Of a DNA stretch of 64,000 nt, positions 11,332 to 63,400 are shown one piece after another. The DNA is from Opitutia bacterium (lineage in GTDB: Bacteria; Verrucomicrobiota; Verrucomicrobiia; Opitutales; Opitutaceae). The notes beneath the pieces were generated by a model. It searched no databases, was not told the DNA's origin, and saw nothing but the letters and a program-made list of their open reading frames with translations. Each line of letters opens with the position of its first letter. The stretch's first letter is position 1. The stretch covers positions 233,501-297,500 of the forward strand of contig JACRHT010000003.1 in NCBI GenBank assembly GCA_016217545.1, given 5' to 3'. The position numbers were made by a program, and so were the translations under genes.

Positions 11332-11359
11332 GCGGCGGGCCCGGCGGTCCCGCCCTACC
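11332..11359. repeat. Solo arm of palindromic element family A
   Basis: GCGGCGGGCCCGGCGGTCCCGCCCTACC matches the reverse complement of 40243-40270 (inside tatD) with one mismatch. No opposing arm is seen here. Located in the ggt/dctA intergenic region. Confidence 0.5.
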
Positions 11360-22887: not shown

Positions 22888-22972
22888 GGTAGGGGCGCTT
22901 GCCCTCAAGCGCCCTTAAAGCGAGGCGCACGCGTGAGATTGCCGAGGGCCGTTGAGGGCAACGGCCCCTACC
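22888..22972. repeat. Palindromic element family A, intergenic copy
   Basis: GGTAGGGGCGCTTGCCCTCAAGCGCCC ... GGGCCGTTGAGGGCAACGGCCCCTACC. Termini GGTAGGGGC/GCCCCTACC are inverted. Each arm is a 9-bp stem with a 4-nt loop. The right arm is identical to 46579-46605 inside hrpA. Confidence 0.8.
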
Positions 22973-39503: not shown

Positions 39504-39554
39504 GCGCGCCTCGCGGCGCGAAGACGCCAAGGAGCGAGTAACAAGTGCCAAGTA

Positions 39555-39583
39555 GGGCCGGTCTCCGACCGGCCTTTTTATTT
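39555..39583 (+). terminator. Rho-independent terminator after ptsH
   Basis: GGGCCGGUC-UCC-GACCGGCC followed by UUUUUAUUU. Confidence 0.8.
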
Positions 39584-39703: not shown

Positions 39704-40564
39704 TCAAATTCCGAAAAATCGCCGGGCATTCGCGGTCGAACGCGCCGCCAGCTCGTCGACCGTCACGCCAAACACGCCCGCCGCGAACTCCGCCGTGTGG
39801 CGGAGGTAGGCCGGCTCGTTGGGCTTCCCGCGATGCGGCATCGGCGTGAGATACGGCGCATCCGTCTCGAGCATGACGCGGTCGAGGCCCTGCGCGCGGG
39901 CCGCCTCGCGGATGTTTTCCGCGGTCTTGTAGGTCAGGATGCCCGTGAACGACCCCACCCCGCCGCGCCGGTTCAACTCGGCAATCTCGGCCGTCCCTTC
40001 GGTGAAGCAGTGGAAAACCACCTTCGCCCACTCGACGCCGCTCGCATCGATCATCTCGACGCATTCGCGGAACGCCCCGCGCGAATGCACGACCACCGGA
40101 CAACCCAGCTTCTTGGCCAGCGCCAACCCGGCGCGAAACGCCGCCTGTTGCGTGGCAAACACGCGCTCCTCCGCCGCCGGGTCGTCCTTGGGCAAGTGGA
40201 AGCGGTCCAATCCGATCTCGCCGAGCGCGACCGGTCCGGGAAGGTAGGGCGGGACCGCTGGGCCCGCCGCTTCGATTGAGTTCGTCGGCGCGCCCGGCGG
40301 TCGCGCCCTACCCCAAAAGCCTTCCAACAGCGCGAATCGCTCCTCCCAGCGTTCATCCACGCTGCAGGGATGGATACCAGCCGTGTAGTGAACGAATCCC
40401 GCGTGCGCCGCCGCGATGTCGCGGTAGAGCCCCCAGTCGTCCGCGTCGGTCCCGATCGTGATCATCGCCTCCAAACCGGCCGCGCGGGCGCGTTCGAGGA
40501 TCGGCGCCAGCTCACCCCGCCGGGCGAAACTCTCGAGATGCGTGTGGGAATCGATCAGGCCCAT
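39704..40564 (-). CDS. tatD: TatD family metal-dependent hydrolase (carries an internal ~24-aa insertion)
   Basis: Start ATG 40564 (MGLIDSHTHLESF). Motifs include GIHP, GEIGLD, VVVHSR, FHCF and ETDAPYL. The track ORF start at 40630 is an upstream extension. Confidence 0.88.
   Translation of the reverse strand: MGLIDSHTHLESFARRGELAPILERARAAGLEAMITIGTDADDWGLYRDIAAAHAGFVHYTAGIHPCSVDERWEERFALLEGFWGRARPPGAPTNSIEAAGPAVPPYLPGPVALGEIGLDRFHLPKDDPAAEERVFATQQAAFRAGLALAKKLGCPVVVHSRGAFRECVEMIDASGVEWAKVVFHCFTEGTAEIAELNRRGGVGSFTGILTYKTAENIREAARAQGLDRVMLETDAPYLTPMPHRGKPNEPAYLRHTAEFAAGVFGVTVDELAARSTANARRFFGI
40243..40312. repeat. Palindromic element family A inserted in-frame within tatD
   Basis: GGTAGGGCGGGACCGCTGGGCCCGCC...GGCGCGCCCGGCGGTCGCGCCCTACC, with inverted termini and two hairpin arms. 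It encodes roughly GRARPPGAPTNSIEAAGPAVPPYLPG, immediately before the conserved GEIGLD motif. Confidence 0.7.
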
Positions 40565-40651
40565 CGCGCGGATTGAATGCCCATGAAAGCGAGAGGCCAG
40601 CGCTTTCGCGCTGGCCTCATGCACACACACCTGGCGTTAGGCCGGTGAAAT

Positions 40652-45947: not shown

Positions 45948-48900
45948 TCAGCGCGGGAGATTTCCCAGCGCGCCGAAGCTCTTGAACACCGTCTTGCCTT
46001 GGGTCGGCAACGACACCGCCACCTTCGGCTTTGCGGGCGCAGCATCGCCACCCGCCGCCGCCTCGCCCTCCTTGCCCGCCGCCAGATCGCGCAGCACCTT
46101 TTCGAGACGCACGGCGGAAACCGGCTCCGCCGTGCCGAGTTCCTGCGCGAACAGGCTCACGCGAAACTCCTCCACCAACCAGCGGAACTCCCCCGCTTTG
46201 TCGCCGAGCCGCTGCAGGGCCTGAACGAACGGCTGCAGCTCGCGCGCCCGCGAAGCGTCCTTCGCCGGGTCGCGTTTCCAGCGCTCGGCGCGCGCCTGCA
46301 TGCCCTTCAAGTAGCGCGGCAGCTCCTTCACGCGCGCGAACGGCGTGCGGCGCAGGAAATCCGGCGGCAGCAACGCCCCGAGATCGCCCTCCATGCCCGG
46401 ATACGGCGTCTTGTGCGTCTGCAGCGCCAGCCGCAGCGTCAGCGTTTCACGCAACCAGTCGACGAGCTTCGGCACCAGCCCGCGCAGATCGGCTTTCGCG
46501 TCGCCGACGGCGCGCTCGAAATTTTCCTTCGTCAGGTAGGGGCGGTTGCCCCCAACCGCCTTCGCCTCGCTCGCGGCAGGGCCGTTGAGGGCAACGGCCC
46601 CTACCCGTCCGCCCTCCGTCACCCAGCGCCGGATCGATTCCAGCGCATCGGCCTGCAATTTCTCCAACGGCGCCAGCGTCACCGTCAGCGTGCCGATCGC
46701 CCGCAGGTCGCGCAGATCCTTCTCGAGCCAGCCGAGTTCATAGCGCAACGCCGTCTCGAGCAACCGCCGCAGACCGACGCGGGTCGCCGCGCGCGCCTCC
46801 TCGGAAGTGGCGAACAGCCGCACCGCCACGCCCGCGTCGCCCGCCTGCAAACCCGGATAAGCGAGCACCGGCACGCCGGCCTGCTCGCTCACGACGACCG
46901 ACTCGGGCAGGTCACCGAACTTCCAGCCGTCCGCGGGCGGTTTCTCCCACTTCTCCCGCGCGGCGCGCCACGTCGCGTTGTCGGCTTTCGCCGCGCGCTG
47001 GCTGACCTCGCGCTGCTTCGTGCCGAGCTGGCTCTGCAATTCCGCGAGGTCGCGGCTCGCCCCGAGCACCGCACCGCGCCGGTCAAGCACCTCGACGCGC
47101 ACGCGCAAGTGGTCGGGCAGCGTCCTCGCGTCCCAGACGCGCGGATCGATGCGCACGCCGAGGCGCTGCGTGAGCACCTCGGCCAGCGCCTGCGCGAGCG
47201 TCGGTTGCGGCGCGCGCGCCGCGATGAGTTGGATCTCGTCGGTGATTTTCTGCGCGGTCTCCGCGAGCGGGATCAGCGTGCGGCGCTGCTCCTTCGGGAG
47301 CGCTTTCAGCATCAATTCGATCTTCTCTCGCAAATGCCCCGGCACCGCCCAGTCGAGCGTCGCGGGCGAGAGATCGGCGGCCTCGTCGAGGTTCACGCGG
47401 AGCGTCACGCCATCGTCGTCCTGACCTGGCTTGTAGGCGTAATTGAGCGGCAGCGCGCGATTCTCGAGCGGGAGCTGCTCCGGGAACGCGCCGTGGTCGT
47501 GCGTCTCCTCGATCTGCGGCTTCAGGTCGTCCTCGCCCAGGAAAAGAAACTTCGGCTCGGTCGTCTGCCGGTGGCGGACGTAGTCGACGAGTTCGGGCAC
47601 GCTGCTGATTCCGAGGTAGGGCGAGTCGTCCCGACGAGCCGCGCCCTGTCGCGCCGCGACCGGCGGCTCATCCGGAGGATTCGCCCTACCCTCCGGCATC
47701 AGGCGCCGGGCGTAGAACCGATACACCGCCTCGTCGAGGTTCATGTAACCCGCCGCGCGCAGGCGCGTGAGCACGCTCTCGGCCTTTTCGCGGATGCGAC
47801 GGTTGTGCGCGATGAAATCGAGCGGGAACGTCACCGTGTCGCCGACAAGTCCCTCGCGGATGAAAATCTCCGTGGCGTGCTTCGGATCGATTTTGCCGTA
47901 GCCGACCGAGCGGGTGTCGAGCTCGAGATTGTAGAGCCGGCGGCGCTCCTTCACGAGCACGCGGCCGGACTCGATGCTCCAGAACGGCTCGCTGTGCGAC
48001 ACGCGCAGCAGGTGCGCGCCGAGGTCGAGGGCCCACAGCGGGTCGATGCGCGCGCAAGTGCGCGCGTAGATGCGGCCCGTCTCCATGATCTCGGACGCCA
48101 TGAGCCAGCGGGCGACCTTGGGCTTCGCGGGGCCCTCTTTGCGCGGCGCGACGACCTTCTCGCGCTGCGGCCTTTCGAAGAGCGACGAGCCGGGAAACAC
48201 CGCGACCTTGCGATCGTGGGCCGCGTGATAGGTGCCGTCGTCGAGTCGCGTGGCGATGTTGCCGAGCAGGCCCGCGAGAATCGCGCGATGGATCGCGCGG
48301 TAACCCGGCGAGCCGGGCACGAGGTCGCGCACCGACTCGGGCGTGGCCGCCGCCTTGCGCCGCGCCGCACGGCCGGCATCGCGCGGGTCGGCGCCGGCGC
48401 CGTCGAAGACCGATGTGTCCTCGAAGCCCTCGCCGCCCTCGATCGTGTCGATGAGTTGCGCGTGGACGTCGCGCCACTCGCGCATGCGCATGAACGACAG
48501 GAAATGGCTCGTGCAGAACTTCCGCAGCTTGCCGAGCGTCATCGTCTCGAAGTCGTCGTGATACGCCTCCCAGATCGAAAGCAGCGTGAGGAAGTCCGAA
48601 TCGGGATGCGTGAACCGCCGGTGCGCGGCATCGGCTTTCTGCTGCGCGTCGAGCGGCCGTTCGCGCGGGTCCTGGATGCTCAGCGCGGCGGCGATGATGA
48701 GCGCCTCGGCCATGCATTTCTCGTCGCGCGCCTGCAGCACCATGCGGCCGACCGTCGGATCGACCGGCAGGCGGGCGAGGTCGCGCCCGAGCTCGGTGAG
48801 CACGCCCGCCTCGTCGATCGCGCCGAGTTCGTGCAGCAAAGCGTAACCGGCGCGAATACCCTTGGCCGGCGGCGCGTTGAGGAACGGGAACTCCTCGATG

Positions 48901-50120
48901 TCGCCGAGGCCGAAGGCTTTCATGCGCAGGATGACGTCCGCGAGATTGCTGCGCTGGATTTCCGGCTGCGCGAAACGCGGGCGCTCGTTGAAATCCTGCT
49001 CCGAATAGAGGCGGATGCACACGCCGTTGCTCACGCGGCCGCAGCGGCCCTTGCGCTGGTCGGCGCTGCTCTGCGCCACCGGTTCGACGGGCAGCCGGCG
49101 CGTGCGGCTCTGCGGCACGTAGCGGCTGATGCGCGCGAGGCCGGTGTCGATGACGAAGCGGATACCGGGAATGGTGAGCGAGGTCTCCGCGATGTTCGTC
49201 GCGACGACGATTTTCCGTTTCTGCGTCGGCGCGAAGACGCGTTGCTGCTCGGCGTTGGTCAACCGGCCGAAGAGCGGCACGATCTCGATGTGTCGCGCCT
49301 TGCGCCCTTCGAGTTGATCGGTGACTTCGCGGATGTCGCGCTCCGTCGGGAGAAACACGAGGATATCGCCGTCCGCGCTCTCGCGCAGCACGCGCTCGAC
49401 CGCCTCGACCGCACCGTCGATGTAGGTGAACTCGTCGCGATCGCGCCGTGTAGCCGAGGGCGTCGACCCCGGCCCGGGGCCATCGGCCCCGGCTACAGCC
49501 ATTTCCTCCAGCGGCGCATAAATCACCTCCACCGGATACGTGCGCCCCGACACTTCGACGATCGGTGCGCCGTCAAACGCCTCGGAAAACGCCTGCGTGT
49601 CGATCGTCGCCGAGGTGATCACGATCTTCAGGTCCGGCCGGCGCAGGCGCAGGCGGCGAAGGTGGCCGAGGATGAAATCGATGTTGAGCGAGCGCTCGTG
49701 CGCCTCGTCGACGATGATGGCGTCGTATTCGCGCAGCTCGGGATCGCCCTGCAACTCGGCGAGCAGCATGCCGTCGGTCATGAACTTCACGACGGTTTGC
49801 GACGAGGTCTGGTCGGCGAAGCGGATTTTGCAGCCGACCTCCTTGCCCCAATCGACGTTCAGCTCCTCGGCCACGCGGCGCGACACCGACGCCGCCGCAA
49901 CGCGGCGCGGCTGCGTGCAGGCGATCTTGCCGCGCGTGCCACCGCCGGCGGCGAGGACCATTTTGGGAATCTGCGTCGTCTTGCCCGAGCCGGTTTCGCC
50001 GGCGAGCACGATCACCTGGTGTTTCAGCAGCAGGCCGATGATTTCGTCCGCGCGCGCGCTGATCGGCAGTTCCGGGGGGAACTCGATGCGGAAGCTCGGT
50101 TGTGGGCGTGGCGGCGGCAT
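45948..50120 (-). CDS. hrpA: ATP-dependent RNA helicase HrpA (DEAH-box)
   Basis: Start ATG 50120 (MPPPRPQPSFRIEFPPELPI...). Motifs GETGSGKTTQ, DEAHERS, SATID, TNIAETSLT and QRKGRCGR, plus a long HrpA C-terminal region. The track ORF extension to 50801 is rejected. Confidence 0.9.
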   Translation of the reverse strand: MPPPRPQPSFRIEFPPELPISARADEIIGLLLKHQVIVLAGETGSGKTTQIPKMVLAAGGGTRGKIACTQPRRVAAASVSRRVAEELNVDWGKEVGCKIRFADQTSSQTVVKFMTDGMLLAELQGDPELREYDAIIVDEAHERSLNIDFILGHLRRLRLRRPDLKIVITSATIDTQAFSEAFDGAPIVEVSGRTYPVEVIYAPLEEMAVAGADGPGPGSTPSATRRDRDEFTYIDGAVEAVERVLRESADGDILVFLPTERDIREVTDQLEGRKARHIEIVPLFGRLTNAEQQRVFAPTQKRKIVVATNIAETSLTIPGIRFVIDTGLARISRYVPQSRTRRLPVEPVAQSSADQRKGRCGRVSNGVCIRLYSEQDFNERPRFAQPEIQRSNLADVILRMKAFGLGDIEEFPFLNAPPAKGIRAGYALLHELGAIDEAGVLTELGRDLARLPVDPTVGRMVLQARDEKCMAEALIIAAALSIQDPRERPLDAQQKADAAHRRFTHPDSDFLTLLSIWEAYHDDFETMTLGKLRKFCTSHFLSFMRMREWRDVHAQLIDTIEGGEGFEDTSVFDGAGADPRDAGRAARRKAAATPESVRDLVPGSPGYRAIHRAILAGLLGNIATRLDDGTYHAAHDRKVAVFPGSSLFERPQREKVVAPRKEGPAKPKVARWLMASEIMETGRIYARTCARIDPLWALDLGAHLLRVSHSEPFWSIESGRVLVKERRRLYNLELDTRSVGYGKIDPKHATEIFIREGLVGDTVTFPLDFIAHNRRIREKAESVLTRLRAAGYMNLDEAVYRFYARRLMPEGRANPPDEPPVAARQGAARRDDSPYLGISSVPELVDYVRHRQTTEPKFLFLGEDDLKPQIEETHDHGAFPEQLPLENRALPLNYAYKPGQDDDGVTLRVNLDEAADLSPATLDWAVPGHLREKIELMLKALPKEQRRTLIPLAETAQKITDEIQLIAARAPQPTLAQALAEVLTQRLGVRIDPRVWDARTLPDHLRVRVEVLDRRGAVLGASRDLAELQSQLGTKQREVSQRAAKADNATWRAAREKWEKPPADGWKFGDLPESVVVSEQAGVPVLAYPGLQAGDAGVAVRLFATSEEARAATRVGLRRLLETALRYELGWLEKDLRDLRAIGTLTVTLAPLEKLQADALESIRRWVTEGGRVGAVALNGPAASEAKAVGGNRPYLTKENFERAVGDAKADLRGLVPKLVDWLRETLTLRLALQTHKTPYPGMEGDLGALLPPDFLRRTPFARVKELPRYLKGMQARAERWKRDPAKDASRARELQPFVQALQRLGDKAGEFRWLVEEFRVSLFAQELGTAEPVSAVRLEKVLRDLAAGKEGEAAAGGDAAPAKPKVAVSLPTQGKTVFKSFGALGNLPR
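46535..46605. repeat. Palindromic element family A inserted in-frame within hrpA (copy 1)
   Basis: GGTAGGGGCGGTTGCCCCCAACCGCC...GGGCCGTTGAGGGCAACGGCCCCTACC. The right arm is identical to the intergenic copy at 22946-22972. It encodes ...GRVGAVALNGPAASEAKAVGGNRPY.... Confidence 0.7.
47615..47690. repeat. Palindromic element family A-like, within hrpA (copy 2, more degenerate)
   Basis: GGTAGGGCGA (47615-47624) and TCGCCCTACC (47681-47690) are perfect 10-bp inverted termini. The region encodes ...EGRANPPDEPPVAARQGAARRDDSPY.... Confidence 0.5.
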
Positions 50121-55411: not shown

Positions 55412-58400
55412 TTACAATCCCGTGACGACGCCCGCGGCCGTGACGTCGACCTTGAGCGTGCCTTGGCCCGTGGTCATCACGCTGCCGCCGGGGGCGATGG
55501 TGATGACGGTGGAGCCGTTGGCGACGGCAGCGGTGACGGTGTAGCCGGTGCTGGGCGCGAGGTCGGCCACGAGGACGTAGGTGTCCTCGGTCGGGACCGT
55601 GAGGGTGAAGCTGCCGGCGATGGGCGCGGCGCTCTTGCTGAAGAGCACGGCGTAGTTGCCGGCGGCGTTGTGGATGATGGTGCCCTCGGCGGCGGCCGTG
55701 CTGAGGTTGCCCGCGGCGGCGGTGAGCGCGGTGACGTTGCCGGCTTGCGCGGCGGACGCAGAGGCGTCGAGCACGGTGAGCCAGGTGTTGGTCGCGGCGG
55801 GCGTGCCGGGGCGGACTTCGAGGCGGTAGACCTTGTGGTAGTTGAACAGGTCGACGGTGTTCACGACGTGGCCGGCGGGCAGCACGGTGGTCACGCGGCC
55901 GCGGAAGAGGTTACCCCCGAAAGCGGCGCGAGTGTCGAGGACGTCGAAGCGGTGCGTGCCGGCGGCGGCGGTCTGCTCGGTGGGAGCGGCGGCGACGTGC
56001 CACGCCATCCAGTTGTCGGTGGCGGCGTTGTTCACCGCAGTGCGGTCGTGCACGACGAAGAGTTGCGGACGCAGGTAGACGACGGTGCGAGTCCAGAGAT
56101 CGATGGGGTGATCGCTGAAATACATCCCCTCGAGATTGGCGCCGCGCATGAGGACGTAGTCGGTGCCTTCCTCGAAGCGCGAGAGCGTGGTGGCGGTTTC
56201 GCCGGGGCCGGAAGCGCCTTGGCCGTAGTAGCCGCCGGTGCGGGCCGCGTAGTAGGTGTTGAAGATGCGGCGCGCGCCGGGGACGCCGTCGACGGGCGAG
56301 CGGTCGTAGACCTCGTTGTAGATGTTGGTGAAGACGCTGCCGGCGCCGTCGGAGGTGCCGGGGGTGTTGCGCAGGAGCGCGCCCCAAGCGTTGACGACGA
56401 ACTGCACGCCGCCGCGCTGGATGGCGAGGCCGCCTTGGTCGAAGTGTTCCTCGGCCGACTGGTCGTAGCCGGTGTAGGGGCCGGCTTGGAACGAGGCCCA
56501 CACGGCGTCGCTGGCCCACGAGCTGCGCATGGCGACTTCGCCGGCGCCGGGCGTGGCGTAGCTGAGCGCGGTGCGGTAGGCGGCGGTGGGCGCGGTGTTG
56601 TCGAAGAACAGGAAGTCGGCCCAAGGCTGGATGCTGTTCACGCCTTGCTGGCTGCGGAGGTCGAGCGTGTAGCGCTGCGCCATCGGAGTGTTGTCGCCGT
56701 TGGAGAGACGGAGGAGGCCGGTGTATTCGGTGGCCCAGGTGGCGTCGGTGGAGGTGAAGTTGTCGCCGTCGTAGATGAGGCCACGATCGGAGACGGTCTT
56801 CATGTCGGGCCAGGTGAACTGGGTGACCCACTTGACGTTGCCGTCGGGATAACCGTGCGGGTGCTCGGCGTCGTGGATGAGATCGAGGCCCTTGGCGGTG
56901 AAGGCGGCCGCGAGCGGGCGGAGCATAGCGAGGGTCTCACCCTTGCCGTAGCCCCAGCCGTCGGGAGCGGAGCCGCCACTGAGCCACTGCTGGTGGAAGG
57001 GTTGCACGAAGTTGAAGTGCACGCGAGTGAGCCAGTCGTTCCACATGGCGGGGCCTTGGGGATTCTCGCCTTCGGTGGCGAGGGCGCCGAGGGCCTTGGC
57101 CGAGTAGTAACCGGCGAAGTAGTTGCCTTGCGGGAAGGAGCGGCCGAAGCCGCCGGACTCGTAGTCGGCGATCCAGCGGTTGATCTCGGTGTAGATCTGC
57201 GCGCGGTCGGAATCGGTGAGGGTCTCGAAGATCCAGTCGTAACCGATCGCGAGCGCGGGCACGTAGGCGCGGATCGCCCAGCCGGAGTCGATCAGCGAGC
57301 GTCCGTGGTGGATCGGGTCGGAGAGGGCGAGGAGCACCTCGCGCTCCTTGGCGGCGTAGCGCGCGGCGCGGACCGGATCGACGGTCTTGGCGACCATGTA
57401 GCCGAGCGCGAGCTCGAAGGACGGCTGCATGTAATCGTAGTATTGGTAGCCGCCGCAGATGGTGTCGCTGGCGTTGGGCTCGTCAGGATAGGCGACGCGC
57501 CAAGTGACGTAGGTGTCGCAGGCGTTGCGGAGGCGAATCCAGGCGGGATCGTTGGCCTGCGCGCGCGCCACGAGAGCGGCGAGCGAAGCGGGCGTCACCC
57601 AGATGCGCGGGTGCGAGACGTTGCCGGTGCCGGGCACGTAGATCGTGACGACCGTGGAGCGCGTGCTGGTGCCGATCTCGTTGGTCGCGCTCAGCGTGTA
57701 GGTGGTGGTGGCGCTCGGTGAGACGGTGTAGCTGTTGCCCGTGACTTCGCCGATGTCGGGCGAGATGCTGATGCGATCCGCGCCGGAGACCGACCACTTG
57801 AGCGTGGAATTGGCGCCCGCCTGGATGAAGGCCGGCTGCGCGTAGAAGGAACCGATGACCGGAGCCGTCGGACCGGTGACAGTCACCGTCGTCGTGGCGG
57901 TGGCGCTGGAGCTGCCGAGCGAGGCCGTGATGGTGTAGGTCGTGGTGGTGGCCGGCGTGACGGTGTAGCTGTTGCCGGTGACGATGCCGGGGCTCGCGCC
58001 GACATCGGCGGCGATGGTGACCTTGTCGGCGTTGGCGACGGACCAGTTCAGCGTCGTGGAGGAGCCGATCGCGATCGTCTCCGGCGAGGCGGCGAAGGAG
58101 CTGATCGTCGGGGTCGGCGGCGGACCGACGCGCACGGTGAGCGATTTGAAGATCGTGGTGTTGGTTTCGCCGTTCCAACCGGAGACGGAGTAGCGAGTCG
58201 TGGTCTGCGGGCGAACGACGAGCGTGCCGTTGGCCGGGACGGAGCCGGGGTCGCCGCCGGCGTCGGCGGACATCCACAGGCTGCCCATCTTCGTGGTGGT
58301 CCAGGCGAGCGTGACGGCTTCGCCGGCCTCGATGCTGTCGGACGAGGCGGTGAAGGTGTCGATCGACGGGCCGGTGGAAGTGCTGACCGTGACGGTGGCC

Positions 58401-61400
58401 GTGCGCGTGACGCTACCGGCGGTGTTGGTGGCAGTGAGCGTGTAGGTCGTGGTTGCCGCCGGTGAGACATTGCGCGAGGTGCCGGTGACGGCGCCGATGT
58501 CGGGCGAAATCGTCACGCTGTCGGCGCCGGTGACGGTCCACGCCAGCGTGGCCGTGCCACCGGGCTGGATGGTGCTCGGCGTGGCGGTGAAGGAGCCGAT
58601 CGTCGGGGCCGGCGCGGTGGCGGCGGAGACGGTGATCGTCGCTTGGGCCGACGCGGTGGCGTCAGCGGCGGAGACGGCCTTCACGTGATAGGTGCCGGCG
58701 ACGGCGGGCGCGGTGTAGACACCGGAGCTCGTGATCGAGCCGCCGGCGTTTTCCACGACGCTCCAAGTGACGGATTGGTTCGTGCTGCCGAAGACGGTCG
58801 CGGCGAAGGTCGCGGTGGCGCCGGTGCTAAGGGATTTCGTGGTCGGCGAAACCGAGACGGTGACGCTGGTCGGCGCGCCGCCATCGGGGAGGCCGAACTG
58901 GTCGGCGGCGTTGGCCGCACCGACGCCGACGGCGCCGATGTCGTTGCCTGCGCCGCTCGTCGGATCGCCAGCGTCAATGAGCGGGCTGCCGGCGGTCGGC
59001 GTGTAGTAGTTGCGGTAGGTCGCGAGGATTTGCTGGAGCGTGAGGGTGCGGTTCCAGACGAGGCCGCGATCGATCGAGCTGTAGCTCGGCGGCGTGGGCG
59101 TCGCGAAGAGCGGATCGACCTGGGCGTTGACGTCGCCGACGTCCTGCGCCGGGTGGCGGCTGTCGTCGTAGTTGCGGAGCGAGGATACGCCGGGGTTGTA
59201 GAACAGGTTGTAGTTCGCGTTGACGGTCGCGGTCGGCTTGATGCTGACGATCGGGTTGCCGTGGAAGCGGTAGAAGACGTTCGACGCGATGGCGCTGGTC
59301 GCGCCGTCCTCGGCGAGGAGCGGGATCTGGTTCTGGCTCACGCCGAAGCCGTCGAGCGTGTTGTTGGTGAACTGCACGCCTTGCGGAGCGTAGACGATGA
59401 ACACGCCCGCGCGGCTGTTGAAGCCTTCGGCGAAGACGTTGTGGTGGACCTGCGCGTTGCTCTGGCTGATCCAGAGCCAATCTTCGTCGGCGTTCAGCAC
59501 GAGGTTGTAGCGGAAGATGCCGCCGGTGCCGCGCACGGGCCAGGAGCCGCCGCTGACGAGGTTGTGTTCGACGACGAGGTCGGCGCCGCTGTTCATCTCG
59601 AAGTTATTGCCCTGGCTCCAACCGCCAAAGTAGAGCTGCTCGGAGAGGTTGCGGCGGACTTGGATGCCGCTGCCGCCTTCGAGGGAAATACCGACGCGCG
59701 GTCCGATGAGGACGTTGGTGTCGGCGTCGGTCGAACCGCCGATGAGCCAGTTGCGGGCGTTCTTCACCTCGATGGTGGAGAGGCCGACGTTGTTGCCTTG
59801 GAAGAAGTGTTGCGCAGTCGAGCTGCCGAGGAGGCGGATGACGGGGTTCGTCGCGTCGGGACCGTTCGTGAGGTTGATCGGGAACTGAGCGACGTTCATA
59901 TACATGTTCGAGCGGAAGTCGTTCGCACGGAGGACGGCGGTGGCGGAGCCGTTGGCCGTGAGGTCGAGCGAGTTGGTCGCATCGAAGACGCAGTTCTCGA
60001 TGTCGATGGCGGAGGTCGTGGTGACCTTGATGCCGGGCGTCGGATCGAGGAGCACGCCGAGGTTGGTGACGTCGACGTTCTTCAGCGTGAGGCGGCCGGT
60101 CCACGAATCGCTCGAGCTGATGGTGAAGCCATTGCCGTTGAGGCGAACGCGAGCGGACGGCGAGCCGACGAGCTCGTAGTTGGCCGCGCCGGTGAGCACG
60201 ACGTTTTCGGTGAGATTGATCACCTGCGCGTAAGCCGGCGGCTCGGCGACGGTGATGGACACGACGGCGCTGTCGAAGACCTTGCCGTCGATGAAGTGGC
60301 CGCGCGCCCAGACGCGGTGTTCGCCGGCGGGGAGGCCGGAGAGGTTGGTCTTGTAAACCCAGAACTCAGACTGGGAGCCGGGGATCGTGGCTTGGACGAC
60401 GTCGTCCACCATGATCTCGACGGACGCGGCGCGGTGGCGGTCGGGCCAGTTATTGATGTCCTCCGCGGATACGAAGACGCGGATCGAGCCGGGCGCGAGG
60501 AACTGTTGGCCGGCGTTCGGGCTCATGAGACGGACGGAGTGCGAGCCGTCGCCCGGGGGATTGACCGGCGGCGTGACGACCGGGGCCTTGACCGTGACGG
60601 TGGCTTCGGCGGTGGCGTTCGAATCGGCGAGGGCAACCGCGCGGACGTGATAGGTGCCCGCAATCGCCGGAGCGATGTAGAGGCCGGCGCTGTTGATCGA
60701 GCCGCCGCCCGTTTCCACGACGCTCCACAGCACGACTTGGTTCTGGCTGCCGGTCACGGAGGCGCTGAAAGCCTGCGTGGCGCTGGTGTTGAGTTGGACG
60801 GCCGCGGGATTGATCTGCACGGTCACCGGAACGGGATCGGTGACGGTGACGACGACATCCTTCGTGACGCTGCCGCCCGTGTTGGTCGCCGTGATCGTGT
60901 AGGTGGTCGTCGCCGTGGGGCTGGCGGGCACGGACGTGCCGGTGACCGCGCCGATGCCGGGCGAAACCGAGAGCGTGTCGGCGCCGGTGACGTTCCAAGT
61001 CAGCGTGGTGGAGGAGCCGCGAACGATCGTGGCCGGATCGGCGGTGAAAGAGGTGATCGCCGGCGCGGGCGTCGCGGGCTTGACGGTGAGCTGGGTGTTG
61101 CTGTGCGAAACGACGCCGCCGGGGCTCGTCGCCGTCATGGTGTAGTTGGTCGTGACGGCGGGAGAGACGTCGATCGAGCCGGTGTTACCGGTGAGGGGGC
61201 CGGGGCTCTGGCCGACATCGGCCACGACGGAGATCGTGGCGGCGCCGCTGACATCCCAGATGAGGTGCGCGGTTTCGCCGACGGTGATGGAGTTGGGCGC
61301 GACGGCGAAGGAGCGGATCACCGGGGCCGGATCTCGCACGGTGATTTTCACGCTCGCGGTGACGGAGCTCGTCTCGTTCGTGGCGGTGAGGAGGTAGTTG

Positions 61401-63346
61401 GTCGTCGCCGACGGATGGACGTCGAAGGAGTTGCCAGTGACGACGCCGGGGGCGTTGCCGACGTCGGTGGCGATGGTGACGGTGGTCGCGCCGTTGGTGA
61501 CCCACGAGAGAGTGGCGGTGCCACCTTGGTCGATCGTGGCGGGCTCAACAGCGAAGGAGCTGATGGTCGGCGCGGGCGGCTTCACGGCGACGGAGACAGT
61601 GCGCGTGACGGCGCCGGCGGCGTTGGTCGCGGTGAGCGTGTAGACGGTGTTCTGCGTCGGCGAGACGGAGCGGCTGTTGCCCGTGACGACGCCGGGGCTC
61701 GCGCCGACATCGGCGGCGATGGCGACTTCGCTGGCGCCGTCGACGGCCCAAGCGAGCGTCGTGGAACCGCCGGTGACGATGACCGTCGGCTCCGCGGTGA
61801 AGGAACCGACGACCGGAGCGCTCACGTTGACGGTGACGCTCTTGCTGTCCTGGCCGCCGGCATTGGCGGCCGTCAGCGTGTAGGTGGTCGTGGCTTGCGG
61901 CGAAACGCTGCGCGTGTCGCCCGACACGGCGCCGATGTCCGGCGCGAGCGTCAGCGTGGCGCTGCCGTTGACCGACCAGCTCAGCTGGCTGCTCTGGCCG
62001 GGGAAAATCGTGACCGGGGCGGCGGCGAAGCTCGCGATCGTGGGCGCCGGCGGATTGACGGTGACCGAGGCTGTGCGCGTGACGACGCCGGACTCGTTGC
62101 GAGCGGTGAGGGTGTAGGTGGTCGATTGCGCCGGGGTCACCGGGACGCTGTTGCCCGTGACGACGCCGGGGCTCGCGCCGACGTTGGCGGCGACGGAGAT
62201 TTCAGCGGCGCCGTCGACGGCCCAGACGAGCGTGGTCGACTGACCTTCGGTGATGGTGGCGGGTTGCGCGGCGAACGAGTTGATCGTGGGCGGCGGCACC
62301 GGCTGCGAAACGGCGAGCGAAACGGTTTTGGTAACGGAGCCGCCGGTATTCGTGGCGGTGAGCGTATAGACGGTGCTGGCGGTCGGGCTCACCGGGACGC
62401 TGGAGCCGGTGACGGCACCGACGCCGGGGGAGATGGAAAGCGAAGCGGCGCCGGAAACCGACCAGGCGAGCGTGCTGCTTTGGCCGGCCACGATGGCGGG
62501 CGGAGTCGCGGTGAAGCTATCGATCGTCGGCGGAGCGACGGTGACGGTGACCGTGGTCTTCTTGGTGACGCTGCCGTTGAGATTCTTGGCGGTGAGCGTG
62601 TAGGTGGTCGTGGCGGCCGGGGTGACCGTGGCGGTCGTGCCGGTCACCGTGCCGAGATTCGGAGAGATCGAAACGGAATCGGCGCCGCTGACGGACCAGT
62701 TCAACGTGGTGCTTTGGCCGGCAAAGATGGTCGCGGGAGCGGCGGCGAAGGACGAGATGGTGGGCTTGGGACCGGGAGGAACGACGACGACGGGAATCGA
62801 GCGCGCACCGGTGCCAGCGGTGTTGACCGCGGTGACGGTGTAAGTGGTGCTGGCCTGCGGATAGACCTTGGTGCTGGTGCCGAAAACGTTGCCGAGGTTC
62901 GCGCCGGAGTCGGTGGTGACGGTGTAGTAGTTGGCTCCGGTGCCCGTCCAAGCGAGCGTCACGGCGGTGCCGGGAAGAACGGGCGAGGGCTTCGCCGTGA
63001 GCGTGTTGACGGTCGGCGGGACGATGACAGTGATCTTCTTGGTCTTGGAAACGCTGCCGGACGCATTCGTCGCGGTCAGCGTATACGTGGTGGTCGCGCT
63101 CGGCGTCACCGTGGCCTCGGAGCCCGTGATCGGGCCCACATCCGGCGAGATCGAGACCTGGGCGCCGTTCGAGACGGACCAATTCAGCGAGACACTCTCG
63201 CCGAGATTGATCGTGGTGCTACCGGATTGGTTGAACGAGTAAATCACCGGCCGGGCCGCATGGGCGGCGGGCACGCCGAAAAGCGCAGTCGCGACGGCGA
63301 GCAACGCGACAGGCAGGAAAGTTCGCAGGAGGGAGATCGGATTCAT
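55412..63346 (-). CDS. Giant secreted multi-domain protein: 14 Ig-like repeats, 2 Big_2-like domains, a right-handed beta-helix and a C-terminal heparinase II/III-like (polysaccharide lyase-like) region
   Basis: 2644 aa. Signal peptide aa 1-30. Ten ~72-90-aa repeats (P.I.SF.A.P..I..G.S..L.W.V.GA...SI.P.IG.VTG....V.P..TT.YTLTA.N) at aa ~31-838. Big_2-like domains (VTWSVVE..GGSI...G.Y.AP..AGTYHV.AV) at aa ~840-920 and ~1493-1574. Beta-helix-like N/G-rich repeats at aa ~1040-1470. Four more Ig-like repeats at aa ~1578-1903. From HPRIWVTPASLAALVARAQ... to ...EEHFDQGGLAIQRGGVQFVVNAWG it resembles heparinase II/III and alginate-lyase-fold enzymes. Confidence 0.85.
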   Translation of the reverse strand: MNPISLLRTFLPVALLAVATALFGVPAAHAARPVIYSFNQSGSTTINLGESVSLNWSVSNGAQVSISPDVGPITGSEATVTPSATTTYTLTATNASGSVSKTKKITVIVPPTVNTLTAKPSPVLPGTAVTLAWTGTGANYYTVTTDSGANLGNVFGTSTKVYPQASTTYTVTAVNTAGTGARSIPVVVVPPGPKPTISSFAAAPATIFAGQSTTLNWSVSGADSVSISPNLGTVTGTTATVTPAATTTYTLTAKNLNGSVTKKTTVTVTVAPPTIDSFTATPPAIVAGQSSTLAWSVSGAASLSISPGVGAVTGSSVPVSPTASTVYTLTATNTGGSVTKTVSLAVSQPVPPPTINSFAAQPATITEGQSTTLVWAVDGAAEISVAANVGASPGVVTGNSVPVTPAQSTTYTLTARNESGVVTRTASVTVNPPAPTIASFAAAPVTIFPGQSSQLSWSVNGSATLTLAPDIGAVSGDTRSVSPQATTTYTLTAANAGGQDSKSVTVNVSAPVVGSFTAEPTVIVTGGSTTLAWAVDGASEVAIAADVGASPGVVTGNSRSVSPTQNTVYTLTATNAAGAVTRTVSVAVKPPAPTISSFAVEPATIDQGGTATLSWVTNGATTVTIATDVGNAPGVVTGNSFDVHPSATTNYLLTATNETSSVTASVKITVRDPAPVIRSFAVAPNSITVGETAHLIWDVSGAATISVVADVGQSPGPLTGNTGSIDVSPAVTTNYTMTATSPGGVVSHSNTQLTVKPATPAPAITSFTADPATIVRGSSTTLTWNVTGADTLSVSPGIGAVTGTSVPASPTATTTYTITATNTGGSVTKDVVVTVTDPVPVTVQINPAAVQLNTSATQAFSASVTGSQNQVVLWSVVETGGGSINSAGLYIAPAIAGTYHVRAVALADSNATAEATVTVKAPVVTPPVNPPGDGSHSVRLMSPNAGQQFLAPGSIRVFVSAEDINNWPDRHRAASVEIMVDDVVQATIPGSQSEFWVYKTNLSGLPAGEHRVWARGHFIDGKVFDSAVVSITVAEPPAYAQVINLTENVVLTGAANYELVGSPSARVRLNGNGFTISSSDSWTGRLTLKNVDVTNLGVLLDPTPGIKVTTTSAIDIENCVFDATNSLDLTANGSATAVLRANDFRSNMYMNVAQFPINLTNGPDATNPVIRLLGSSTAQHFFQGNNVGLSTIEVKNARNWLIGGSTDADTNVLIGPRVGISLEGGSGIQVRRNLSEQLYFGGWSQGNNFEMNSGADLVVEHNLVSGGSWPVRGTGGIFRYNLVLNADEDWLWISQSNAQVHHNVFAEGFNSRAGVFIVYAPQGVQFTNNTLDGFGVSQNQIPLLAEDGATSAIASNVFYRFHGNPIVSIKPTATVNANYNLFYNPGVSSLRNYDDSRHPAQDVGDVNAQVDPLFATPTPPSYSSIDRGLVWNRTLTLQQILATYRNYYTPTAGSPLIDAGDPTSGAGNDIGAVGVGAANAADQFGLPDGGAPTSVTVSVSPTTKSLSTGATATFAATVFGSTNQSVTWSVVENAGGSITSSGVYTAPAVAGTYHVKAVSAADATASAQATITVSAATAPAPTIGSFTATPSTIQPGGTATLAWTVTGADSVTISPDIGAVTGTSRNVSPAATTTYTLTATNTAGSVTRTATVTVSTSTGPSIDTFTASSDSIEAGEAVTLAWTTTKMGSLWMSADAGGDPGSVPANGTLVVRPQTTTRYSVSGWNGETNTTIFKSLTVRVGPPPTPTISSFAASPETIAIGSSTTLNWSVANADKVTIAADVGASPGIVTGNSYTVTPATTTTYTITASLGSSSATATTTVTVTGPTAPVIGSFYAQPAFIQAGANSTLKWSVSGADRISISPDIGEVTGNSYTVSPSATTTYTLSATNEIGTSTRSTVVTIYVPGTGNVSHPRIWVTPASLAALVARAQANDPAWIRLRNACDTYVTWRVAYPDEPNASDTICGGYQYYDYMQPSFELALGYMVAKTVDPVRAARYAAKEREVLLALSDPIHHGRSLIDSGWAIRAYVPALAIGYDWIFETLTDSDRAQIYTEINRWIADYESGGFGRSFPQGNYFAGYYSAKALGALATEGENPQGPAMWNDWLTRVHFNFVQPFHQQWLSGGSAPDGWGYGKGETLAMLRPLAAAFTAKGLDLIHDAEHPHGYPDGNVKWVTQFTWPDMKTVSDRGLIYDGDNFTSTDATWATEYTGLLRLSNGDNTPMAQRYTLDLRSQQGVNSIQPWADFLFFDNTAPTAAYRTALSYATPGAGEVAMRSSWASDAVWASFQAGPYTGYDQSAEEHFDQGGLAIQRGGVQFVVNAWGALLRNTPGTSDGAGSVFTNIYNEVYDRSPVDGVPGARRIFNTYYAARTGGYYGQGASGPGETATTLSRFEEGTDYVLMRGANLEGMYFSDHPIDLWTRTVVYLRPQLFVVHDRTAVNNAATDNWMAWHVAAAPTEQTAAAGTHRFDVLDTRAAFGGNLFRGRVTTVLPAGHVVNTVDLFNYHKVYRLEVRPGTPAATNTWLTVLDASASAAQAGNVTALTAAAGNLSTAAAEGTIIHNAAGNYAVLFSKSAAPIAGSFTLTVPTEDTYVLVADLAPSTGYTVTAAVANGSTVITIAPGGSVMTTGQGTLKVDVTAAGVVTGL
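60833..63256 (-). repeat. Coding tandem repeat array (10 Ig-like units, period ~216-270 nt)
   Basis: Repeat starts at aa 34, 112, 195, 273, 363, 435, 511, 593, 675 and 763. The periodicity is also visible at DNA level as recurring antisense ORFs starting MVVA.GET... at 60903, 61146, 61398, 61647, 61884, 62373 and 62604. Confidence 0.85.
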
Positions 63347-63400
63347 GTTTGGCTAAACGGACCTAACGGAATCCTCCCCGCAAACGGGCCAGTCGCTTGC

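Follow-up and report, generated by a model that had tools for sequence, protein, structure and literature searches.

In the known systems of repetitive extragenic palindromes (REPs) and REP-associated tyrosine transposases (RAYTs), two inverted REPs form a doublet (a REP doublet forming hairpins, or REPIN) that folds into one long hairpin and reaches high copy number, the RAYT gene is flanked by its own REPs, and the GTAG head of the unit serves as the recognition and cleavage motif of the RAYT (Bertels and Rainey 2011, PMC3116915; Nunvar et al. 2010, PMC2817692; Ton-Hoang et al. 2012, PMC3333891). GTAG- and CGTC-tagged REPs were described by Di Nocera et al. (2013, BMC Genomics 14:522, PMC3733652), who found that Opitutus terrae has the most intragenic GTAG REPs, with 70 intragenic entries listed. 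According to the same study, intragenic dimers of GTAG REPs encode 15 to 30 amino acids in frame, some open reading frames (ORFs) carry two inserts, GTAG REPs often provide a stop codon, and RNA helicases are among the hosts, with HrpA of O. terrae (Oter_0009) listed with two REPs in its Additional file 3. The families of O. terrae PB90-1 are numbered GTAG-17 to GTAG-20; GTAG-17 dimers read VAGVADPGPGSTSPA and GTAG-18 dimers read VGPALAAGRE...PPY, and different REPs were found at about the same site in recB of two Xanthomonas species (PMC3733652). Here, we analyze a stretch of 64 kb (the window) from another member of the Opitutaceae (Verrucomicrobiota), in which the gene for the RNA helicase HrpA contains two palindromic segments, copy 1 (46535 to 46605) and copy 2 (47615 to 47690). 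With a probability of roughly 0.85, we consider these segments to be in-frame REPINs, that is, inverted doublets of GTAG-headed REP hairpins, that have survived in tolerant loops of the protein.

The window elements have much in common with the GTAG REPs of O. terrae: they come from the same bacterial family and share the GTAG head, the short G+C-rich hairpin, the in-frame head-out dimers, and HrpA as a host. Even the peptides agree in part, since GTAG-18 dimers read VG...PY, as copy 1 does, and the GTAG-17 peptide is nearly that of a third doublet in the window hrpA (VAGADGPGPGSTPSA). However, the stem sequences of the O. terrae units are unlike those of window subtypes A, B, C, and D, the REPs listed for O. 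terrae HrpA are single units, and neither hot spots refilled by other subtypes across species nor a one-frame rule is part of that paper. With respect to REPIN-RAYT systems in general, the window elements resemble REPINs in their doublet structure and, probably, in a high copy number, and related Opitutaceae genomes contain RAYT genes flanked by REPs, but classical REPINs are described as extragenic and no RAYT partner of the window subtypes was found in the sequence searched. The first-pass annotation, made from the sequence of the window, considered multiple hits in an intact helicase gene to be notable; the hits are real, but intragenic GTAG REP dimers, including the case of O. terrae HrpA, were published in 2013, and the third hrpA doublet had been overlooked. 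With other stem subtypes and another Opitutaceae lineage, this locus is thus a new instance of a known phenomenon. What is new is the patchwork of five subtypes over five hot spots in 120 Opitutaceae HrpA sequences, together with the use of one frame per subtype.

The host gene, hrpA (45948 to 50120, minus strand), is a single uninterrupted ORF, as stated previously, and encodes an ATP-dependent RNA helicase of 1,390 amino acids with the Pfam architecture DEAD, Helicase_C, HA2, OB_NTP_bind, and DUF3418 and a clear match to structures of Escherichia coli HrpA (9gft/6zww; E = 1e-239). Its closest match, 91% identical, belongs to a metagenome-assembled genome named 'Ca. Didemnitutus sp.', and other matches carry the names Opitutus, Lacunisphaera, and Oleiharenicola; the G+C content of the genome is 67%.

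Both segments are present as originally described, with lengths of 71 and 76 bp, and both are translated on the minus strand. Units of this type have a GTAG head, a G+C stem of 8 to 9 bp, and a 4-nucleotide loop, and two inverted units fold into one long hairpin. Copy 1, a doublet of subtype B at a site that we refer to as hot spot S1 (ends GGTAGGGGC...GCCCCTACC), consists of two GTAGGGGC(S)GTTGCCC(Y)CAAC(S)GCC hairpins, arranged head-out around a 19-nucleotide spacer, with stems of 8 and 9 bp, 4-nucleotide loops, and zero mismatches. Its arms, 26 nucleotides each, are 88% complementary, and the coding-strand RNA is predicted to fold at -60.3 kcal/mol (z = -5.9; 0 of 200 shuffled sequences were as stable). 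It contributes the peptide (R)VGAVALNGPAASEAKAVGGNRPY at HrpA residues 1171 to 1195. Copy 2, a doublet of subtype A at hot spot S2 (ends GGTAGGGCGA...TCGCCCTACC), has arms of 28 nucleotides that are 86% complementary and encodes GRANPPDEPPVAARQGAARRDDSPY at residues 810 to 835; both peptides are exactly those that the earlier annotation had quoted. The coding-strand fold of copy 2 is predicted at -57.7 kcal/mol (z = -5.3; again 0 of 200 shuffles were as stable), with the flanks pairing as well, and its main fold is the long doublet hairpin, the unit stems carrying two mismatches and being only weakly palindromic by themselves. Over all strongly folding doublets of the window, the long-hairpin z scores range from -5.3 to -6.7. 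Copy 2 is, in addition, enclosed by a longer imperfect palindrome (approximately 47606 to 47700; GATTCCGA...CTCCGGCATC), the arms of which recur around other REP subtypes at the same HrpA site in three other loci (L003, L205, and L206) and stand, in L003, 22 nucleotides from the REP head; this outer palindrome may have been left behind by an older element.

That these segments are repeated elements is evident from the window itself. The right arm of copy 1 contains an exact 27-mer, GGGCCGTTGAGGGCAACGGCCCCTACC, that occurs only at 46579 and in the right arm of an intergenic doublet at 22946 (to 22972), with 0 occurrences expected on the basis of dinucleotide-preserving shuffles, and GGTAGGG occurs 13 times compared to an expected 1.7. 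The identity between copy 1 and the intergenic copy, already noted in the first-pass annotation, was retained upon formal alignment, which placed copy 1, the intergenic copy, and HrpA doublets of L003 and L004 (at the same or other sites) in one subfamily, B, with conserved arms and diverged spacers. The assignment of both hrpA copies to the same family was therefore correct only at the level of a superfamily, defined by ends and architecture: while copy 1, copy 2, the third hrpA doublet, a doublet in tatD, and the intergenic doublet all run from GTAG to CTAC, copy 2 (subtype A) and the tatD copy at 40243 (subtype D) share with subfamily B just their GGTAGGG/CCCTACC ends and overall design. 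Searching Rfam with the doublets yielded no family above its gathering score. A chance match of 47614 to 47693, comprising copy 2, to the human microRNA hairpin mir-3180 (35 bits; gathering score, 99) calls for caution when RNA annotation of G+C-rich REP hairpins is automated.

Comparison to orthologues, in alignments of 33 and, subsequently, 120 Opitutaceae HrpA sequences (P0001 to P0120), supports the view that both segments arose by lineage-specific insertion of a palindromic repeat element. Both are missing in P0006 and P0012, which are 86 to 89% identical to the HrpA of the window and read RR[LI]T-EPVSSV at S2 and WVT-xRSVxP-LTA at S1, and they are also missing in many other, more distant orthologues. 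In eight orthologues, the DNA confirmed the absence of both segments where these were missing from the protein. In the alignment to E. coli HrpA, a gap is found at the site of the third doublet (S3), and the alignment breaks at S2.

The reading frame of the inserts is biased. In both orientations, the element has a stop codon of its own in the frame that splits the head as GG TAG, which leaves two frames, both of them open in the hrpA copies. Across the 120 HrpA sequences, subtype A was read as GRANPPDEP...RRDDSPY (27/25, versus 4/0 for the alternative frame) and subtype B as VGAV...NRPY (23/30 versus 0/0), and the unused frames would yield peptides rich in Arg, Cys, and Trp. Each subtype is, in other words, read in essentially one frame, which supports the proposal of frame-constrained survival made in the first-pass annotation. 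The accompanying explanation, that both peptides begin with G-R and end with P-Y because their termini are read in the same frame, holds for the right ends only (CCC TAC C, or P-Y). The left ends are read in different frames: copy 2 starts with GGT AGG GCG (G-R-A), whereas copy 1 is read as ...GGA CGG GTA GGG GCC..., such that the element contributes V-G and the G-R stems from the flanking codons GGA CGG. We consider it plausible that selection acts as a filter on such intragenic copies.

Since the S1 region alone had no detectable match among solved structures, it could not be placed on full-length E. coli HrpA, and we turned to an AlphaFold model of HrpA residues 701 to 1390, of which (mean predicted local distance difference test [pLDDT] score, 72.7; predicted template modeling score, 0.53) only the local confidence was used. 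In this model, the inserts of copy 1 (model residues 475 to 493) and copy 2 (model residues 112 to 135) are both coils with pLDDT values below 50, with confident helices on either side. The prediction fits a location of both inserts in tolerant surface loops or linkers. Furthermore, the best-matching stretch of the Pfam domain DUF3418 restarts at residue 838, directly past the insert of copy 2.

In metagenome contigs, the subtype-B unit is found as at least 144 units at at least 130 sites in at least 120 loci. Among the matches listed, 107 sites were noncoding, 10 were coding, and 13 were located at contig edges; all 10 coding sites, out of 117 scorable ones, were read as VGAV...(N)xPY. Among these listed loci, subtype B is thus mainly extragenic, and the hrpA copies belong to a minority class. 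In agreement with a high copy number, contig word depth over REP arms was 8 to 10 times the depth of the flanks in three metagenomes (runs X1 to X3), including one that holds the window. A strain in run X3 with approximately 97% nucleotide identity retains both doublets without gaps. In run X1, a groundwater metagenome, a minor contig (depth of 3.3 versus 29.3) covers 46506 to 46617 with 49 other letters in place of the S1 doublet, pointing to a coexisting strain with another S1 allele. A search for further host proteins with the concatenated subtype A and B peptides did not reveal any candidate sharing three words, and an exhaustive search with the copy 1 peptide returned only two repetitive proteins, of 4,685 and 501 amino acids, with 12 and 8 matched stretches, respectively.

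Viewed across the 120 orthologues, HrpA has five positions that are either empty or filled, namely (in window protein numbering) S3 at residues ~205 to 228, S4 at ~435 to 440, S2 at ~808 to 835, S1 at ~1168 to 1195, and S5 at ~1340 to 1370, near the C terminus. The inserted peptides fall into types A (GRANPPDEP..RRDDSPY), B (VGAVAPNGP..GNRPY), C (GRAGSPLPA..RRGAESAPY), D (GRAGPLGPP..AGPAVPPY), and E (VAGADGPGPGS), besides which degenerate forms occur. S2 is occupied in 96 and S3 in 77 of the 120 sequences. Even within the clade of the window (≤10% amino acid distance), S1 may hold B, C, A, or an unclassified insert or be empty, and S2 may hold A, B, or an unclassified insert or be empty. Two subtypes stand in tandem at one site in P0011, P0020, and P0024, and partly deleted remnants are present in, for example, P0005, P0007, and P0020. 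The patchwork does not follow the HrpA tree: on a neighbor-joining tree, the minimum number of presence/absence changes was 33 for S1 and 19 for S2, compared to 39 and 22, respectively, after shuffling of the tips.

Filled alleles, whatever their subtype, have common site-specific flanks and a right junction that is identical to the base, while the left junction varies by 0 to 22 nucleotides; empty alleles have retained a short form of their own, which is conserved. The differentiation between filled and empty alleles is limited to the 40 residues adjoining each site and is gone beyond that distance, which led us to reject recombination over long tracts as the origin of the mosaic. Two histories are compatible with this pattern, and we are undecided between them: a founding insertion at each site, after which subtypes were replaced or converted in short patches, or repeated insertions whose junctions converged. 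Subtypes may well have replaced one another at sites that were already occupied. Tentatively, and with more doubt than conviction, we speculate that resident intragenic REP heads act as landing pads, such that, after fixation of a REPIN in a tolerant loop, RAYT machinery or short-patch conversion swaps or adds subtypes over and over at precisely this junction, that the helicase would thereby have acquired five cassette-like hypervariable loops that outpace the divergence of the protein, and that REPIN families may have evolved a 'coding-safe' frame, with coding sequence as a habitat.

As for the source of the elements, a RAYT encoded by this genome may have mobilized them. An IS200-like HUH/Y1 enzyme of this kind would mobilize nonautonomous REPINs in trans through single-stranded DNA, and REPINs would have landed inside hrpA, the third hrpA doublet and the tatD doublet being of the same kind. 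Such insertions would have survived for two reasons, namely, their position in disordered linkers or loops of the helicase and their reading in one stop-free frame that gives a peptide rich in Gly, Ala, Pro, Asp, and Asn. With the RAYT of O. terrae (Oter_2468, taken from the supplement of Di Nocera et al.) as the query, 25 homologues were found, the alignment of which was scanned against one genome per species. In about a dozen genomes of Opitutaceae and other Verrucomicrobiota, RAYT genes turned out to be flanked within approximately 150 bp, usually on both sides, by GTAGGG hairpins (e.g., loci L005, L006, L009, L011, L012, L014, L015, L016, and L040). These hairpins have 8-bp stems and loops of 4 to 5 nucleotides, and their stem sequences differ from those of the window subtypes. 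The REPtron arrangement, with the same hairpin format, therefore exists in the Opitutaceae.

Several observations weigh against the interpretation of the hrpA segments as RAYT-mobilized REPINs. No RAYT was detected by tblastn in the window or in the syntenic loci L001 to L004, none of subtypes A to E flanks any of the RAYT loci fetched, and no transposition has been observed. When RAYT proteins were searched against 120 metagenome loci with subtype B, two Y1/HUH transposase-like ORFs emerged (L147, 10685 to 11443; L185, 826 to 1569; motifs MPDHAHLF and MPNHVHVL), but these lie 3 to 6 kb from the subtype-B units and have no units flanking them. The unit hairpins of copy 2 are degenerate. Finally, the filled alleles do not equal an empty allele plus a REPIN, since their flanks differ from the empty form at S1 and S2, and neither 71 nor 76 bp, the lengths between the inverted repeats, is divisible by three, with the result that the insertion event cannot be reconstructed. 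A comparison of empty with filled alleles, meant to locate the insertion point and target exactly, likewise gave no simple 'empty plus element' solution at either site.

How, then, could the pattern have arisen otherwise? The most serious competitor, which we regard as possible but unlikely, holds that the patchwork stems from short-patch exchange by homologous recombination or gene conversion, either among the REPIN copies of one genome or among co-occurring strains, rather than from new RAYT insertions. The uniform flanks and exact right junction of filled alleles, the confinement of filled/empty differences to 40 amino acids, and the minor contig with another S1 allele in one metagenome are all in line with such exchange, for which the conserved GGTAGGG/CCCTACC ends could act as short homology. 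These common ends, though, span 7 to 10 nucleotides, which is short for RecA-dependent exchange; the tandem subtype pairs in P0011, P0020, and P0024 resemble additions more than conversions; and no tract longer than 40 amino acids was detectable. A clearly smaller probability goes to domestication, in which inserts of REPIN origin are now kept for a function, either as flexible linkers within the C-terminal part of HrpA or as hairpins in the mRNA at which ribosomes slow down or an RNase cuts, thereby adjusting hrpA expression. One might cite in its favor that HrpA is an RNA helicase, that the ORF contains very stable predicted mRNA hairpins with folding energies of -58 to -60 kcal/mol, that the X3 strain keeps both doublets gap-free, and that the same five sites are filled in most of the 120 orthologues (as in the occupancy of S2 and S3). 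Nevertheless, the subtype at a given site varies between relatives 5 to 10% apart, many orthologues have no insert, and partly deleted remnants persist (P0005, P0007, and P0020). Moreover, among copies of the same subtype, the REP arms are conserved while spacer codons change nonsynonymously, indicating that conservation tracks the DNA repeat and not the peptide.

We attach next to no probability to the idea that both segments represent common HrpA linkers of low complexity that evolve quickly and resemble the intergenic palindrome by coincidence. Peptides rich in Gly, Ala, and Pro that are predicted to be disordered are what one would expect of such linkers in a genome with 67% G+C. Yet tatD and intergenic DNA contain the same units, as do hundreds of metagenome contigs, and the 27-mer shared with the intergenic copy, the fold z scores far beyond those of shuffled controls, and the formal alignment together refute chance similarity. 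The reading as in-frame REPINs in tolerant loops is the one that we retain.

In total, the window contains five doublets and some single units, and four of the five doublets are intragenic. The third hrpA doublet, at S3 (49450 to 49496, 47 bp, minus strand; HrpA residues ~208 to 222), is GTAGCC-headed (GTAGCCGGGGCCGATGGCCCCGG/CCGGGGTCGACGCCCTCGGCTAC) and in frame, with a weakly folding RNA (z = -1.45). The tatD doublet, of subtype D (40243 to 40312), lies in frame in a tatD-like ORF on the minus strand (39704 to 40636), encodes GRARPPGAPTNSIEAAGPAVPPY, and folds strongly (z = -6.7); it is missing in the TatD proteins of L001, L002, and L003 and degenerate in L004. The intergenic doublet that serves as the reference copy of subtype B occupies 22888 to 22972 (z = -5.5). 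A single unit of subtype D (GGTAGGGCGGGACCGCCGGGCCCGCC; 11334 to 11358, minus strand) is located at a gene boundary, where the end of the adjoining minus-strand ORF and the GG TAG of the unit may overlap. Another single unit (GTAGGGCCGGTCTCCGACCGGCC; 39552 to 39574, plus strand) lies in the intergenic region that separates the HPr gene from tatD. In L002 (20631 to 20653), a genome whose HrpA is 91% identical to that of the window, the corresponding gap contains a related unit; the position of the unit (GTAGGGCCGGTC...) is kept, with a few base changes. Elsewhere in the window, 55412 to 63352 on the minus strand is an open frame of approximately 2,600 codons, opposite which many short ORFs with high G+C at third codon positions are located; in syntenic loci, a giant protein (>1,600 to >2,200 amino acids) was called, with faint matches to I-set and Beta_helix.

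Rickettsia palindromic elements (RPEs), reportedly described by Ogata et al. in 2000 as inserted in frame in protein-coding genes, offer a functional parallel. RPE-1 is longer than the elements of the window, at approximately 100 to 150 bp, and we know of no dedicated transposase for RPEs. As in hrpA, these selfish palindromes reside in intact ORFs, to which they add a peptide at tolerated sites, sometimes twice per gene; the likeness is one of function only, however, as RPEs are alphaproteobacterial and considered unrelated, and the window elements are GTAG-tagged. RPE-4 and RPE-6, for instance, are CGTC-tagged (PMC3733652). [quoted passage not shown] Classical MITEs, in contrast, derive from insertion sequences with DDE transposases and produce target-site duplications, whereas the ends of the window elements are GTAG hairpins. 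No consistent direct repeat was present in the flanks of the doublets, those of copy 2 being inverted rather than direct, and the elements therefore failed the target-site-duplication test of classical MITEs.

These findings do not overturn current views, the basic phenomenon having been in the literature since 2013. For annotation, they mean that the extra segments of 17 to 26 residues in HrpA, as well as the one in TatD, are footprints of selfish DNA and not new domains, sequencing errors, or pseudogene scars. Beyond that, the clade constitutes a natural experiment, in which the same few loops of HrpA were occupied, vacated, and reoccupied many times over by five long-lived REP subtypes. It makes testable whether RAYTs target resident REP heads, whether the hairpins affect translation of the host mRNA, and how strong selection is on intragenic insertions, given that approximately 8% of the subtype-B copies among the matches listed are coding, in a genome assumed to be mostly coding.

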